From sequence record SRR20825006_1186: a DNA stretch of 34,048 nucleotides; one strand, given 5' to 3'. Shown here one piece after another: positions 12,100-22,001 of the stretch. A program made the position numbers and the translations under genes. Position 1 is the first letter of the stretch, and each line of letters starts with the position of its first letter. The notes beneath the pieces are model-generated. The model searched no databases. It was not told the DNA's origin and saw only the letters and a program-made list of their open reading frames with translations.

Positions 12100-12600
12100 A
12101 TGCAGCAAAGCGCCGTAGATGCGGTGATCCGAGGGCTCAAACGGGCGGGTGTGAGTATCGTATGTTACCTGCCGGATTCGCTGTTCAAAGAACTCTATCC
12201 GGCGCTCGATGCCGACCCGGACATTCGCACCATCCAAGTCACCAACGAAGGCGAGGGGGCGGCCATTTGCGGCGGTGTGTTCCTATCGGGCAAACGCGCG
12301 GCTTTGGTGATGGAAAACTCCGGTCTGCGCGCCTCGGTCGAACCGCTTGCGCGGATGGGCTTGGGCGCGGGCATCCCGGTTGTGATGCTGATGAGCTATC
12401 GCGGCGATATGGGCGAAAACAATTGGTGGGCGGTGCCACATGGCGTGACCATGGAACCGGTGCTGCAAGCCCTGCGCATCCCCTATGTGGTCGAGCGCGA
12501 AGAGGAGCGGATCGAACAAGCGATTTTTGACGCATATGAGCTGGCCTATTCGTCTTATTACCACACCGCCGTGGCGCTTTCGGGGAGTATCGTGCGATGA
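12100..12600 (+). CDS. ThDP-dependent decarboxylase alpha (PYR) subunit, sulfopyruvate/phosphonopyruvate decarboxylase-like
   Basis: Motifs YLPDS, VTNEGEGAAICGG (catalytic Glu), LVMENSG, MLMSYRGDMGE; GGAGG RBS. Confidence 0.8.
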   Translation: MQQSAVDAVIRGLKRAGVSIVCYLPDSLFKELYPALDADPDIRTIQVTNEGEGAAICGGVFLSGKRAALVMENSGLRASVEPLARMGLGAGIPVVMLMSYRGDMGENNWWAVPHGVTMEPVLQALRIPYVVEREEERIEQAIFDAYELAYSSYYHTAVALSGSIVR

Positions 12601-13205
12601 AACGCTTTGAGTGTATGACAAAATTGGCCGCCCGCCTCTCCGACGAATTGGTGATCCTCTCATTGGGCGCCTCTGTTGACGAATGGTACAACGCCGCGCC
12701 GCACATGCGCGCCGCCTCGCTGTTTCAACAACAATTGGGCTGTGTCACGCCGCAGGCGTTTGGACTGGCGGCGGGCCTGCCGGAGCGCCAAATCATCTCG
12801 CTCGACACCGATGGCGGGCTGTTGTTCAACCTCGGCATACTGGCCACTTTGGGCAATGAAAGACCGAAAAACCTGTTTGTCGTGGTCTGGGACAATGAAA
12901 TGTACCAATCCATCGGCGGGCCCAAAACCCACACCGCCTCGGGCACCGTCGATCTGGCCGCCATTGCGCAGGGCGCCGGGGTGACACACGCCTACACCGC
13001 CCGCACTTTGGACGAGTTCGACGCCCATTGCGAAGCGGGTTTGGCCAGTGACGACCCCTATATTGTCGTCGCCAAGGTCGCGGGCACCGTTCAGCCCGAG
13101 ATCAAGCGCAAACACTCAGATGGGCGCGAGGACAAGTACATCTTTGTGCGCCATGTCGAAGCCACCGAAGGGATCACCATCATGGGCCCTTCTGAACATA
13201 ACTGA
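12597..13205 (+). CDS. ThDP-dependent decarboxylase beta (PP) subunit, ComE-like
   Basis: ThDP/Mg motif variant DTDGGLLFNLG...VVVWDNEMYQSIGG; ATGA overlap with the alpha subunit. Confidence 0.8.
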   Translation: MKRFECMTKLAARLSDELVILSLGASVDEWYNAAPHMRAASLFQQQLGCVTPQAFGLAAGLPERQIISLDTDGGLLFNLGILATLGNERPKNLFVVVWDNEMYQSIGGPKTHTASGTVDLAAIAQGAGVTHAYTARTLDEFDAHCEAGLASDDPYIVVAKVAGTVQPEIKRKHSDGREDKYIFVRHVEATEGITIMGPSEHN

Positions 13206-13219
13206 TCCACGGGACTGAC

Positions 13220-19900: not shown

Positions 19901-20038
19901 TTGGGCATTGGTGCGGTGACGCCCGCGATTGCCAATGCGGTATTTGATGCGATTGGACGCTGGCCGGTGGTGACGCCGTTTGCGCCAGAGAGCCTTTTGG
20001 ATGTGATCGCATCCGTTGAGGCGGAGGCCCAAACATGA
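16976..20038 (+). CDS. Xanthine dehydrogenase-family protein, FAD-binding domain fused to the molybdopterin-binding subunit (PucC+PucD-like)
   Basis: N-terminal ~250 aa FAD domain (VGGTG, IGAG, IRRLATLGGN, RKIGLRAAF). Mo domain motifs HPHAEI, GGAFGGK, GAFRGFGANQ, EMGQG, TTASRG, GQMEGG, GPRGAGELG. Confidence 0.88.
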   Translation: MRVSHPRTLAEAEALIATGAQAVVGGTGHQFRWSQGQTRPDHLVNIGPLLPNGINGLTIGAGTSLEDIRRAGLPLLSQACRDVGAPNIRRLATLGGNIGFGAGCLIPALLALDAELNTTRGPRPLRDHLRDPKGLILSMTLRPLERSIWRKIGLRAAFTPAMIVSAGTLASQDGRITDLRLSVGGGIVAPQRLTEVETWLIGQVLTKVDMADLETRVFAAIDAPSCAFRSAGYRKHVAAKVISHGLLGPDLKTHCPKTLRPSPTPPPALTALSRQGGGDRWHTRPDMPAKVRGALPYLTDVRAPGMLVGRILRAAHPHAEILRIDTRRAEALPGVHAVVTHRDITGLNGFGIVFQDQPALCADKVRYTGDPVAAVAAIDAQVAEAALALIDVEYAPLPAVTDPEMALMPSATRVHDSGNLVSEITHAKGDLTEGWAKAVHVIEDTYVTPRQMHGFMETEGGWAAPDGPQNDGILVCAGGQHGARDRLQLSRILDMPKEKIRVISSPTGGAFGGKDELTVQPVLALLARKSGRAVRLHLSRAESVQAGTKRNPMRIRMKTGCDATGRLVAQEVDVLSDCGAYASLSPGVLETAMEHAAGPYVIENIQTRGRLAYTNNGTCGAFRGFGANQMSYAIECQMDRLAAKAMLDPVAIRRLNMRVPGSPGFLSQRVAPSERLLEMLNAASSSPLWSARETNPDEIIGTGMALNYQGNGLGTLPEDEAEFALRLKGGKIEVLCGLDEMGQGLIASLHAELSTRLGVARDDSRAVFGDTGTAPDSGSTTASRGGYVVWRGIKETAPPFETELLSQAGAKLGLPPAELRLVPGGIGARGANTPAPLLRFGAMADSATFTTQFSFPKSDYTKGNARLIFAFATTLTRVAVNRVSGQVRVLDLEMHTAAGPVIDMASYLGQMEGGLIQGLGFTLTEDMLMQDGRPVTTNFDSYMMPTVRDVPNTMRITALEDLDPGDPYGPRGAGELGIGAVTPAIANAVFDAIGRWPVVTPFAPESLLDVIASVEAEAQT

Positions 20039-20496
20039 TCGGGTTTACACTCAATGGTCAGACCGCCGAGATCGCCCCGGATGAGAGCCTGTTGTCGACC
20101 CTGCGCGAAAGGTTAGGCCAGACCGGCACCAAACAGGCCTGCGAAATTGGCCGCTGCGGGGCTTGTACCGTTTTGCTCGAGGGTCACGCGATCAACGCCT
20201 GTTTGCTGATGGGATGGCAGGTGGCGGGCAAAGCCGTGACCACAATCGAGGCGCTTGAAACCTTGGCCGAGGGCCGGGCTTTGGTGCGCGCGATGGAGGA
20301 GGAAAACGGCTTTCAATGCGGCTATTGTGCCCCCGGCGTGATGATGAGCCTCGTTGGCCTCTTCACACATTCGCCCGATGCCACGGACGAGATGATCCGC
20401 ACCGCCCTTGAGGGCAACCTGTGCCGCTGCACCGGCTATCACTCGATTTTGCGCGGGGCGTTTCGCGCCCGTGCGCTTATAAAGGACAGGATATGA
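20035..20496 (+). CDS. Xanthine dehydrogenase-family 2x[2Fe-2S] small subunit (PucE/CoxS-like)
   Basis: Motifs TKQACEIGRCGACTV...NAC, FQCGYCAPG, GNLCRCTGY. Confidence 0.92.
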   Translation: MIGFTLNGQTAEIAPDESLLSTLRERLGQTGTKQACEIGRCGACTVLLEGHAINACLLMGWQVAGKAVTTIEALETLAEGRALVRAMEEENGFQCGYCAPGVMMSLVGLFTHSPDATDEMIRTALEGNLCRCTGYHSILRGAFRARALIKDRI

Positions 20497-22001
20497 CATT
20501 CACCTTGACCCCACATGCGCCCAAAACCGACGGCGTGCTGGCGTTTTTGGCCCGGCCCGCGCAACCGATTTGGATCGGCGGGGAATGGCAGATATTGCCC
20601 GATCAGTTTGACAGCCATGATCCCGCCACCGGTGCTCTTTTGACTCGCCTGTCGCGGGCGGGCGCGGCAGAGGCCGATGCGGCGGTGGCTGCGGCGCAAG
20701 AGGCGCTGGCATCAAACGCATGGCGCGGGATGCTGCCCGCCACGCGTCAGGCCTTGTTGTGGAACATCGCTGATCTGATCGAGGCCCACGCCGATGAATT
20801 GGCCGAATTGGAAAGCCTCGATCAGGGCAAAACCTTTGCCACCGCCCGGTTCGGCGAAATCCCCGGCACAGTCGCCCAGTTTCGCTATTACGCCGGGTTT
20901 GCGACCAAATTGACCGGGGACAGTTTTACCCCCTCAATCGGCTATGCCCCACCGGGCAAACAGGTCATGGCCTATACCCGACGCGAACCTGTGGGGGTTG
21001 TGGCCGCGATCACGCCGTGGAATTCGCCCCTTTTGATGGCGGCAATGAAACTGGCGCCTGCGCTTTGCGCGGGCTGCACCGTGATTTTGAAACCGGCCGA
21101 GGAAACATCACTGACCGCGATCCGGCTCTGTAAATTGATCGAAGAGGCGGGGATGCCCAAGGGCGTGGTCAACCTGTTGACTGGCTTTGGACATGAGGTC
21201 GGAGAGGCCTTGGCCACACATGCGGGTGTCGCCAAAGTGGCCTTTACCGGATCGACCGAAATCGGACGGCATTTGTTGGGCTCGGCCAAGGGCAACCTCA
21301 AAAAACTGACACTCGAACTCGGGGGCAAATCCCCGGCGATTGTGATGGCGGATGCCGATCTTGATCTGGCGGTGCCGGGTGTAGCGCGCGGGATTTTTGC
21401 CAATTCGGGACAGGTCTGTGTGGCCGGGTCTCGCATCTATGTTCAGCGCGCACTCTATGATCAATTTGCCGAACGGCTGGTGCAGGCCGCACTTGCGCTG
21501 CGCCTTGGGCACGGGTTGGCACCGGACAGCGATCTTGGCCCGCTCATCAACGCCACACATGCCGCGCGGGTCGCGGGGATTGTCGACCAAGGTCGCGCCG
21601 AGGGGGCCGAAATTTTGACCGGAGGCGGGCAAATCGACGAAGCACCCGCGTTTTTTCAACCAACGATCCTGACTGGCGTGCGCCCCGACATGGCCTTGAT
21701 GCGGGATGAGATTTTCGGCCCGGTGACGGCACTCACCCCATTTGACACGCCAGAGGAGGCCTTGGGCCTCGCCAATGACAGCGAATACGGCTTGGCGGCC
21801 TCGGTCTGGACCGAAAACCTCAGCCACGCGCACAAACTGGCGGCGGCAATCCATGCGGGCACGGTCTGGGTCAATTGCCATAGCTATTTTTCACCGGAAC
21901 TGCCGAAAGGCGGGATCAAGGCCTCGGGTTGGGGCGTGGAAAACAGCGCGCAAGGCTTGGACAATTACCTGGAGAATAAAACCGTCTGCATGGTGATTTA
22001 G
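20493..22001 (+). CDS. NAD(P)-dependent aldehyde dehydrogenase
   Basis: Motifs ITPWNSPL, FTGSTEIG, LELGGKSP, NSGQVCVAGSR, EIFGPV. ATG 20493 overlaps the upstream stop (ATGA). Confidence 0.93.
   Translation: MTFTLTPHAPKTDGVLAFLARPAQPIWIGGEWQILPDQFDSHDPATGALLTRLSRAGAAEADAAVAAAQEALASNAWRGMLPATRQALLWNIADLIEAHADELAELESLDQGKTFATARFGEIPGTVAQFRYYAGFATKLTGDSFTPSIGYAPPGKQVMAYTRREPVGVVAAITPWNSPLLMAAMKLAPALCAGCTVILKPAEETSLTAIRLCKLIEEAGMPKGVVNLLTGFGHEVGEALATHAGVAKVAFTGSTEIGRHLLGSAKGNLKKLTLELGGKSPAIVMADADLDLAVPGVARGIFANSGQVCVAGSRIYVQRALYDQFAERLVQAALALRLGHGLAPDSDLGPLINATHAARVAGIVDQGRAEGAEILTGGGQIDEAPAFFQPTILTGVRPDMALMRDEIFGPVTALTPFDTPEEALGLANDSEYGLAASVWTENLSHAHKLAAAIHAGTVWVNCHSYFSPELPKGGIKASGWGVENSAQGLDNYLENKTVCMVI

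Follow-up and report, generated by a model that had tools for sequence, protein, structure and literature searches.

We analysed a 34,048-nt stretch of DNA from sequence record SRR20825006_1186 (the window) and find that its plus strand carries an operon in which an NdmC-type non-haem iron oxygenase, here called NdmC2, is joined to a GMC-family flavoprotein alcohol oxidase, a split thiamine diphosphate (ThDP) enzyme, an amidohydrolase (AH3), a molybdenum (Mo) hydroxylase of the xanthine dehydrogenase (XDH) family and an aldehyde dehydrogenase (ALDH). We propose that this operon removes a carbon substituent, by stepwise oxidation, from an imported modified purine-type base; the substrate is hypothetical, and we put the probability of this reading at about 0.42. 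The operon adds to an NdmC-type oxygenase system a module for oxidation and decarboxylation that includes a new ThDP subfamily, and its parts all come from known enzyme superfamilies.

Protein families in the window were called with Pfam and NCBIfam profiles, and nearest solved structures were identified by comparison with the PDB. The oxygenase, GMC, ALDH and ThDP enzyme types named in a preliminary description of this DNA are all present on the plus strand. The same gene string further encodes AH3, a fused FAD and molybdopterin hydroxylase and its 2Fe-2S subunit, and the ThDP enzyme is encoded by two genes. From about 9790 to 22001 the plus strand is a single close-packed gene string, with eight close-packed or overlapping genes in 12100-22001:

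9790-10449, plus strand: stand-alone Rieske 2Fe-2S protein, 219 aa (open reading frame from TTG 9733, probable start ATG 9790; Pfam Rieske, E 4.3e-23)
10446-11075, plus strand: glutathione S-transferase (GST)-like protein, counterpart of NdmE (Pfam GST_N, GST_C)
11009-11998, plus strand: LysR-type regulator (Pfam HTH_1, LysR_substrate; true start probably later than that of the open reading frame)
12100-12600, plus strand: ThDP enzyme alpha subunit (ThDPa), PYR domain, 166 aa (TPP_enzyme_N, E 4.5e-8)
12597-13205, plus strand: ThDP enzyme beta subunit (ThDPb), PP domain, 202 aa (TPP_enzyme_C, E 4.1e-14)
13220-14758, plus strand: GMC flavoprotein alcohol oxidase/dehydrogenase, 512 aa (GMC_oxred_N, 140 bits; GMC_oxred_C, 99 bits)
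14746-16116, plus strand: AH3, TRZ/ATZ-type amidohydrolase, 456 aa from ATG 14746 (Amidohydro_1, E 1.6e-60)
16104-16979, plus strand: NdmC2, second NdmC-like non-haem iron oxygenase (VanA_C only, no Rieske domain)
16976-20038, plus strand: XDH-family fused FAD-binding and molybdopterin subunit, 1020 aa (FAD_binding_5, CO_deh_flav_C, Ald_Xan_dh_C, MoCoBD_1/2)
20035-20496, plus strand: 2Fe-2S subunit of the Mo hydroxylase (Fer2, Fer2_2)
20493-22001, plus strand: NAD(P)-dependent ALDH, 502 aa from ATG 20493 (open reading frame 20421-22001; Aldedh, E 5.6e-171, 570 bits)

Start and stop codons overlap at four junctions (ThDPa/ThDPb, NdmC2/XDH, XDH/2Fe-2S subunit and 2Fe-2S subunit/ALDH, the last as ATGA at 20493-20496), and the GMC and AH3 genes share 13 nt. 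The translations of all operon proteins retain intact catalytic motifs. The claim that these genes form one operon thus agrees with gene overlaps and close packing, from which we infer co-transcription.

Conservation of this arrangement was assessed in related loci. A pattern scan with one genome per species gave 562 relatives of the oxygenase from both NdmC clades, of which the best 80 were analysed with 10-kb flanks; 57 loci of the full 20-kb length are of the NdmC2 type and 15 full-length loci are of the type of the window's other copy (NdmC1). In a quick maximum-likelihood tree the copy-1 clade holds 17 rows, the window's included, and the copy-2 clade 64, the split having an SH-aLRT support of 100. 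The preliminary description was right to set the second NdmC-like copy apart: besides forming a clade of its own, it is accompanied by GMC in 57/57 full loci, as against 1/15 of the NdmC1 type. The same contrast holds for AH3 (50/57 versus 0/15), the 2Fe-2S subunit (45/57 versus 0/15), XDH (44/57 versus 0/15) and ALDH (42/57 versus 0/15). ThDPa and ThDPb are found in 52/57 NdmC2-type loci; among the 15 NdmC1-type loci ThDPb occurs once and ThDPa three times. The NdmC1-type locus positive for GMC and ThDPb (L078) and the two with a ThDPa match only (L073, L075) owe these matches to a neighbouring NdmC2 cluster. Conversely, a guanine-deaminase-like gene is present in 11/15 NdmC1-type loci and in 1/57 of the NdmC2 type.

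The order of the genes is also conserved. ThDPa-ThDPb-GMC is unbroken in 53/53 loci, and the exact 11-gene order of the window recurs in 30/64 NdmC2-type loci. Komagataeibacter (L062) has a reshuffled order, yet all parts stand in one gene string, and four Rhodococcus loci keep a core of Rieske-GST-ThDPa-ThDPb-GMC-NdmC2-ALDH that lacks AH3. Because it is kept across two phyla (Alphaproteobacteria and Rhodococcus) in several gene orders, this linkage is far beyond chance.

NdmC2 has the 2-His-1-carboxylate iron site (D-x2-H-x4-H at residue 116) and is 54% identical to copy 1. The CxH and CxxH pair of Rieske ligands is absent from both NdmC-like copies. It is present in the stand-alone Rieske protein (CPH-x17-CLYH), whose 219 aa hold no reductase domain and which is presumed to be the partner that delivers electrons to the Rieske-less oxygenases. 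The Rieske and GST-like genes accompany both clades (53/57 full NdmC2-type loci and 15/15 of the NdmC1 type), and the LysR gene lies directly upstream of ThDPa in 44/57 full NdmC2-type loci. The structural role of NdmE, counterpart of the GST-like protein, is that given in parts of the 2015 caffeine review (PMC4408171). By PDB comparison, NdmC2 is closer to the saxitoxin C-H hydroxylases SxtDIOX (73 bits) and SxtT (69 bits) than to NdmB (41 bits) or NdmA (39 bits).

The strict pairing with GMC is our main clue to the chemistry of NdmC2. Hydroxylation of an N-methyl group yields a product that falls apart to formaldehyde, so no alcohol oxidase is needed, and NdmC1-type loci indeed lack GMC. Since the NdmC2 clade is always paired with a GMC alcohol oxidase, we take the product of NdmC2 to be a stable alcohol, formed on a carbon substituent of an adenine-type base. 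A second argument in the preliminary description came from the lack of a glutathione-dependent formaldehyde dehydrogenase. None is found among the annotated open reading frames of the window, but this is uninformative because G001, the nearest available genome and the only one of 401 sampled Pseudomonadota genomes with an ortholog of the ThDP enzyme (100% identity), carries one on another contig (615 bits, cut-off 544).

The ThDP subunits are the most conserved part of the operon. They are 76-100% identical among all loci with orthologs, from Rhodobacteraceae to Rhodococcus, compared with 45-75% for neighbouring genes; for ThDPa, identity is 79-100% in the 52 full NdmC2-type loci where it occurs, and 48% and 72% in two other loci. 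The cause is purifying selection and not recent transfer: ThDPa is 98% identical to the Sinirhodobacter copy (L002) in amino acids but 86% in nucleotides. The best profile matches are sulfopyruvate and phosphonopyruvate decarboxylases, and every NCBIfam equivalog cut-off is missed (ThDPa against TIGR03845, sulfopyruvate decarboxylase alpha, 106 bits, cut-off 148; TIGR03846, 91 bits, cut-off 221; TIGR03297, 58 and 89 bits, cut-off 312). The nearest structures are 9u8q_A, an unnamed split ThDP enzyme, for ThDPa (79 bits) and 9iz3_B, a putative phosphonopyruvate decarboxylase beta subunit, for ThDPb (52 bits). ThDPb has TDG-x25-DN, a variant of the GDG...NN motif for ThDP and Mg, and ThDPa has NEGEG, in which the cofactor-activating Glu is probably to be sought. 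The family also has a conserved C-terminal block of its own, around DG-E-KY-FVR-E. Apart from G001, the other 29 matching genomes among the 401 carry paralogs of at most 42% identity, and a search of 1.84 billion proteins returned only 40 representative clusters at E <= 1e-30. Judged by its sequences and distribution, the pair is a distinct family that belongs to the NdmC2 pathway.

Paralogous ThDP pairs elsewhere (L104, L112) are followed by ALDH, the usual arrangement for converting a 2-oxo acid to an aldehyde and then to an acid. Sister pairs from soil metagenomes, 38-52% identical, have varying neighbours (an NMT1-type binding protein in 17/80 loci; isochorismatase, Rieske alpha subunits, XDH subunits and, in one locus, a class-V aminotransferase), and no common function emerged from these neighbourhoods. 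One soil metagenome contig (L131:1-3102) holds three tandem ThDPa/ThDPb pairs of the sister subfamily, head to tail. On another (L167:1951-19656), a sister pair lies between the class-V aminotransferase and the FAD, 2Fe-2S and molybdenum cofactor subunits of an XDH-family enzyme, in a cluster that also has a hydantoinase, an amidohydrolase, an M20 peptidase and a Bmp-type ABC transporter. This cluster resembles one for ureide or purine breakdown, and the aminotransferase could feed the decarboxylase.

The other operon enzymes are likewise related to known families and fall short of named functions. The GMC protein, with its FAD-binding GxGxxG (GSGSGG) at residue 11, scores 343 bits (cut-off 605) and 291 bits (cut-off 732) against choline dehydrogenase models; its nearest structures are alcohol oxidase 8rpg (242 bits), choline oxidase, a chloramphenicol-oxidising enzyme and pyridoxine 4-oxidase, which places it nearest to primary-alcohol oxidases by similarity. 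ALDH has the catalytic Glu and Cys motifs (ELGGK at residue 275, GQVC at residue 306) and reaches no equivalog cut-off, its best named models being StyD-like (553 bits, cut-off 850) and aminobutyraldehyde/betaine-aldehyde dehydrogenases. AH3, with HxH at residues 67-69, is nearest to methylthioadenosine (MTA)/S-adenosylhomocysteine and adenosine-type deaminases (4f0r, 190 bits) and is probably a deaminase.

The Mo hydroxylase belongs to the XDH family by its domains and scores below all puc cut-offs (pucD 690 bits, cut-off 784; pucC 114, cut-off 306; pucE 156, cut-off 254). As G001 has it in addition to a separate housekeeping xdhB (1171 bits), it probably acts on a modified ring. Its FAD subunit is fused N-terminally to the molybdopterin subunit, the 2Fe-2S subunit being a separate downstream gene, and among solved structures it is closer to 4-hydroxybenzoyl-CoA reductase and nicotinate dehydrogenase than to the XDHs.

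The purine-type context comes from a divergent companion operon and from related loci. The features concerned are:

831-9213, minus strand: divergent companion operon, with AH1, NdmC copy 1, AH2, two permeases, an ATPase and a binding protein (Pfam, NCBIfam)
831-2225, minus strand: AH1, guanine-deaminase-like (guanine deaminase model 362 bits, cut-off 375; PDB 2uz9)
2150-3046, minus strand: NdmC-like copy 1
3062-4618, minus strand: AH2, 8-oxoguanine-deaminase family (8-oxoguanine deaminase model 565 bits, cut-off 532; PDB 7ww2, 3hpa)
8044-9213, minus strand: Bmp-type binding protein (AtzT 6pi5, 212 bits; Brucella Bmp 3s99, 199 bits)
L008:3151-4953, L011:3011-4813, L042:3065-4867, L066:1625-3424 (minus strand): examples of the adenine-deaminase-like gene of related loci

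The nearest relative of the binding protein, AtzT, is an atrazine-binding protein; the AtzT and Brucella Bmp structures presumably hold purine bases rather than nucleosides. The transporter is found with both clades (Bmp in 33/57 NdmC2-type loci; Bmp, ATPase and permease 1 in 12/15 and permease 2 in 11/15 of the NdmC1 type). The family of AH2 also includes, according to parts of a recent report, N2,N2-dimethylguanine hydrolases (PMC13054789), and the companion operon looks like a module for N-methylated guanines. An adenine-deaminase-like gene (~600 aa, 331 bits, cut-off 472) lies between GST and LysR in 33/80 loci with either oxygenase clade; it is absent from the window, and the adenine deaminase that G001 has elsewhere in its genome is just 34% identical. 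Given the deaminase families and the AtzT/Bmp-like transporter, the 22-kb island looks like a device for the import and dismantling of modified purine bases.

From this gene content we infer a route of six steps. With the GST-like protein holding it and the stand-alone Rieske protein passing electrons to it, NdmC2 would hydroxylate a C-H of the substituent to give a stable alcohol. The GMC flavoprotein would oxidise the alcohol to an aldehyde, possibly further or to a 2-oxo acid. The acid would be made by ALDH, or by GMC or the Mo enzyme in loci that lack ALDH, and the split ThDP enzyme would release one carbon as CO2. AH3 would then deaminate an adenine-type ring, and the dedicated Mo hydroxylase would oxidise the ring to a product that joins ordinary purine catabolism. 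In one version of this route, (a), a ring-bound C-methyl group, as in 2-methyladenine, would pass from CH3 through CH2OH, CHO and COOH to H, with the ThDP enzyme acting on an alpha-imino-acid-like purine carboxylate. In another, (b), a two- or three-carbon chain would be shortened as in mandelate breakdown, from 2-hydroxy acid to 2-oxo acid, aldehyde and acid, the oxygenase acting first or last. Version (a) would require little evolutionary change, the oxygenase having only to shift from N-methyl to C-methyl groups, and 2-methyladenine, a natural base from rRNA and tRNA, is its obvious natural candidate. Version (b) fits the homology of the ThDP enzyme. 2-Methylpurine, 8-methylpurine and 6-substituted pterins are guesses at the substrate.

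Stepwise removal of a C-linked substituent, as first suggested in the preliminary description, remains the leading hypothesis and is unproven. In its favour are the oxygenase-GMC linkage and, in parts of the published accounts, methyl-to-carboxyl precedents for an oxygenase with alcohol oxidation and ALDH (TsaM/TsaC/TsaD, 2,4-xylenol); the ThDP step has no heteroaryl-carboxylate precedent. The further suggestion that the amidohydrolase opens the ring hydrolytically to supply a 2-oxo acid is weakened: ring opening by AH3 is unlikely because AH3 is deaminase-like and is missing from the four Rhodococcus loci that keep ThDPa-ThDPb-GMC-NdmC2-ALDH.

Several observations weigh against our reading. 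In version (a) a ThDP enzyme would have to act on a ring carboxylate, and for this there is no precedent. The nearest relatives of the enzyme, sulfopyruvate and phosphonopyruvate decarboxylases, act on 2-oxo acids of the form X-CH2-CO-COO-, and to our knowledge ThDP decarboxylases act on 2-oxo acids and none on a ring-bound carboxylate. Version (b) has no known purine substrate, and it is weakened because its GMC enzyme would have to oxidise a 2-hydroxy acid, an activity for which we know of no GMC enzyme. Decarboxylation of a purine carboxylate has one known precedent: parts of the report on lumazine catabolism in Cupriavidus describe this for xanthine-8-carboxylate, but the enzyme is a prenylated-FMN (prFMN; UbiD-type) decarboxylase and not a ThDP enzyme (PMC12391406). 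Nor is the gene set invariant. Within 10 kb, ALDH is not found in 15/57 and XDH in 13/57 NdmC2-type loci, and ThDP is absent from 5/57 full loci. The related loci are moreover kin rather than independent samples, so that the counts overstate independence. The resemblance of NdmC2 to the solved NdmA and NdmB is distant (39-41 bits). Finally, a ferredoxin or NAD(P)H reductase gene is not conserved near the Rieske, GST and oxygenase genes in any of the 80 loci; either of the operon's own flavoproteins, GMC or the Mo enzyme with its FAD domain, is a candidate electron donor to the Rieske protein.

The ThDP query also found nothing in G002-G004, and in G005 it matched only partially, at 32% identity. 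These four, all metagenome bins and possibly incomplete, retain GMC-AH3-NdmC2-XDH-FeS-ALDH (FeS, the 2Fe-2S subunit), and therefore decarboxylation there would be dispensable, spontaneous or done otherwise. A substitute decarboxylase was sought in the ThDP-less loci and none was found. Adjoining the GMC-AH3-NdmC2-XDH-ALDH core in these loci (L033:2104-4031 and 16033-19594, L058:15387-16445) are genes for 2-oxoglutarate (2OG)-Fe(II) oxygenases, a CDA-type deaminase and an NMT1/THI5-type ABC binding protein. The closest matches of the 2OG oxygenase are ethylene-forming and other enzymes, and thymine dioxygenase is only a middling match (123 bits).

A bolder form of version (a) is that the split ThDP enzyme decarboxylates a purine or pteridine carboxylate, with a ring C=N in place of the keto group or by way of a transient N-oxalyl ring-opened form, and so, together with the NdmC-type oxygenase and the GMC oxidase, completes a bacterial C-demethylation of C-methylated purines, 2-methyladenine set free when rRNA and tRNA turn over being one example. 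We hold this specific claim to be unlikely.

The alternative that survives best is N-dealkylation followed by clean-up of the fragment, which we consider unlikely. Here NdmC2 would hydroxylate the carbon beside a ring or exocyclic nitrogen of an N-alkylated adenine, for instance one with a cytokinin-type N6 side chain; base and aldehyde fragment would be freed, and GMC, ALDH and ThDP would metabolise the fragment and not the purine. Passages of the caffeine review describe NdmC-type enzymes as N-demethylases (PMC4408171), the adenine-deaminase-like gene of 33/80 loci suits such a base, the host bacteria (Rhizobium, Bradyrhizobium, Methylobacterium, marine Rhodobacteraceae and Rhodococcus) are for the most part associated with plants or algae, and the closest relatives of ALDH are phenylacetaldehyde, aminobutyraldehyde and betaine-aldehyde dehydrogenases. 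If the fragment were of central-metabolite type, however, its clean-up would not require a ThDP family confined to the cluster, and we could draw no route from a cytokinin side chain to a 2-oxo acid. In a search of the literature on isopentenyladenine catabolism, the term isopentenyladenine occurs in none among the matches listed.

A pteridine substrate handled with the same enzyme logic is decidedly unlikely, although several observations are in keeping with it. The candidates would be biopterin, neopterin, 6-hydroxymethylpterin, folate breakdown products, or N-ribityl lumazine or flavin. GMC, ThDP and ALDH would trim the polyol or hydroxymethyl side chain, the amidohydrolases would deaminate pterins and the Mo enzyme would hydroxylate pterin or lumazine. 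AH2 also matches 2paj (244 bits), which is deposited as a putative cytosine/guanine deaminase and which we take to be isoxanthopterin deaminase; the far relatives of the binding protein include the riboflavin binder 4iil (31 bits); and a vicinal-diol or hydroxymethyl side chain would give GMC, ThDP and ALDH real work. Mo enzymes of the XDH family oxidise lumazines and pterins, according to parts of the Cupriavidus report (PMC12391406), but the isomerase and the decarboxylase of the characterised lumazine cluster are of the amidohydrolase-2 and prFMN families, and the window has neither. The adenine-deaminase-like and MTA-deaminase-like genes are better suited to adenine, and side chains that are already hydroxylated leave the strict pairing with an NdmC-type oxygenase unexplained.

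Plain N-demethylation through a long-lived N-hydroxymethyl intermediate strikes us as very doubtful. NdmC2 would act on an exocyclic N-methyl group, GMC would oxidise N-CH2OH to N-CHO, an amidohydrolase would deformylate the product, and ALDH and ThDP would handle C1 or C2 by-products. N6-hydroxymethyladenine is fairly stable, as this would require, and GMC (57/57) and AH3 (50/57) are the most constant partners of NdmC2. Against this, known deaminases remove N6-methyladenine hydrolytically, according to parts of a recent report (PMC13296781), so that an oxidative route seems unnecessary; the cluster-specific ThDP decarboxylase of 52/57 loci is left with no role; and NdmC1-type loci, presumably also N-demethylating, lack GMC, ThDP and ALDH. 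Least credible of all, and disfavoured, is a chance or merely regulatory co-location with enzymes of an unrelated pathway such as choline-like or sulfonate catabolism: the best named GMC and ALDH models are choline and betaine-aldehyde dehydrogenases, all below cut-off, and the ThDP subunits resemble sulfopyruvate decarboxylase, but the linkage persists across Alphaproteobacteria and Rhodococcus with rearranged orders, start and stop codons overlap within the operon, and the 401 sampled genomes hold no ThDP ortholog beyond the NdmC2 cluster.

Expression of the operon has some support from assembled contigs. One study provides two seawater RNA libraries in which contigs of a ~92%-identical relative span the whole operon, and a single contig bridges 16065-21007 (NdmC2-XDH-FeS-ALDH). 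These contigs cover operon and flanks alike, and DNA carry-over is possible; they are weak support for expression, and not for induction or a single transcript. The interval 9000-22400 contains 6 terminator-like sites where 14.3 are expected, and promoter and terminator scans of the operon region gave no signal above expectation. The genes downstream of ALDH (22077-26957 and 27375-33433) are housekeeping genes unrelated to the operon: opgC, a family-2 glycosyltransferase in the position of opgH and opgG (osmoregulated periplasmic glucans), then pqiA, an MlaD-domain (pqiB-like) protein, an auxiliary lipoprotein and a Cache-domain chemoreceptor. Among the best 80 of the 562 relatives the closest locus is that of Celeribacter baekdonensis DSM 27375, with 92% identity for NdmC2 and 92-100% over the cluster; the window comes from a Celeribacter-like member of the Rhodobacteraceae.

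Modified bases from RNA and DNA turnover are a steady source of nitrogen and carbon, and bacterial routes for most modified purines are unknown. Parts of one recent paper call caffeine the best-studied case of modified-purine breakdown (PMC13296781), and the 2015 caffeine review, in the passages concerned, already notes that Sinorhizobium and Mesorhizobium have homologues of ndmCDE whose function was unknown (PMC4408171). In the full-text literature, supplementary files excluded, we found no published description of the operon, of the function of the rhizobial ndmCDE homologues or of 9u8q, and nothing after that review on the function of ndmCDE homologues or on a ThDP-GMC-ALDH linkage. The operon, which ranges over soil, plant-associated and marine Alphaproteobacteria and Rhodococcus, indicates that the GST-dependent NdmC-type oxygenase has a second, distinct job requiring alcohol oxidation and decarboxylation, and its ThDP enzyme represents a small family, almost invariant in sequence, to which no substrate has been assigned. 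Should the ThDP enzyme take off a carbon bound to the ring, its reaction would be new for ThDP enzymes and the route would be the first for purine C-demethylation in bacteria; should the substrate be a cytokinin-like plant signal or a pterin, the operon would be relevant to interactions of plants and algae with microbes.

Our reading finds partial parallels in known systems. The mandelate pathway (mandelate dehydrogenase, benzoylformate decarboxylase, benzaldehyde dehydrogenase) uses a flavoprotein, a ThDP enzyme and an ALDH in series to cut an aryl chain by one carbon; its flavoprotein is FMN-dependent and not GMC, its ThDP enzyme is full-length, and it has no oxygenase or Mo hydroxylase. Fungal thymine 7-hydroxylase and iso-orotate decarboxylase oxidise a ring methyl group and then decarboxylate, a logic like that of the window operon. 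The TsaMBCD toluenesulfonate pathway, in parts of its published description, likewise hydroxylates a ring methyl group and goes on to alcohol and aldehyde oxidation, TsaM being of the same Rieske oxygenase class. In these routes the alcohol step falls to a short-chain dehydrogenase/reductase or to the oxygenase itself, whereas the window has a GMC flavoprotein, and the thymine route relies on an amidohydrolase-type decarboxylase where the window has a ThDP enzyme and a purine-like substrate class.

Cluster I for lumazine and pterin breakdown in Cupriavidus sp. LA-1, as described in parts of the report, shares an extra XDH-family hydroxylase beside the housekeeping XDH and an amidohydrolase-superfamily deaminase, and it too decarboxylates a purine carboxylate, feeding xanthine to purine catabolism; unlike the window, it employs an amidohydrolase-2 family isomerase and a prFMN-dependent decarboxylase (PMC12391406). 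The words thiamine and GMC are absent from the main text of that paper. We rejected the Cupriavidus pathway as the identity of the window cluster, its isomerase and decarboxylase families being absent from the window.

ComDE sulfopyruvate decarboxylase and phosphonopyruvate decarboxylase are, like the window's enzyme, ThDP enzymes that lack the middle domain and are split into PYR and PP subunits, but the window family misses their equivalog cut-offs, has its own C-terminal block and occurs only in the purine-type cluster. Another close system is NdmCDE, the N7-demethylase of the caffeine pathway in Pseudomonas putida CBB5, which acts on 7-methylxanthine with release of formaldehyde and shares the catalytic subunit lacking a Rieske cluster, the Rieske centre in trans and the obligatory GST-like partner encoded next to it. 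NdmD, however, joins its Rieske domain to an FMN/NADH and plant-type 2Fe-2S reductase, whereas the Rieske protein of the window is a free 219-aa protein. The window lacks ndmA- and ndmB-type genes and frmAB, and, unlike NdmCDE, its copy-2 clade is always found with a GMC oxidase and usually with the ThDP enzyme, the Mo hydroxylase and ALDH.

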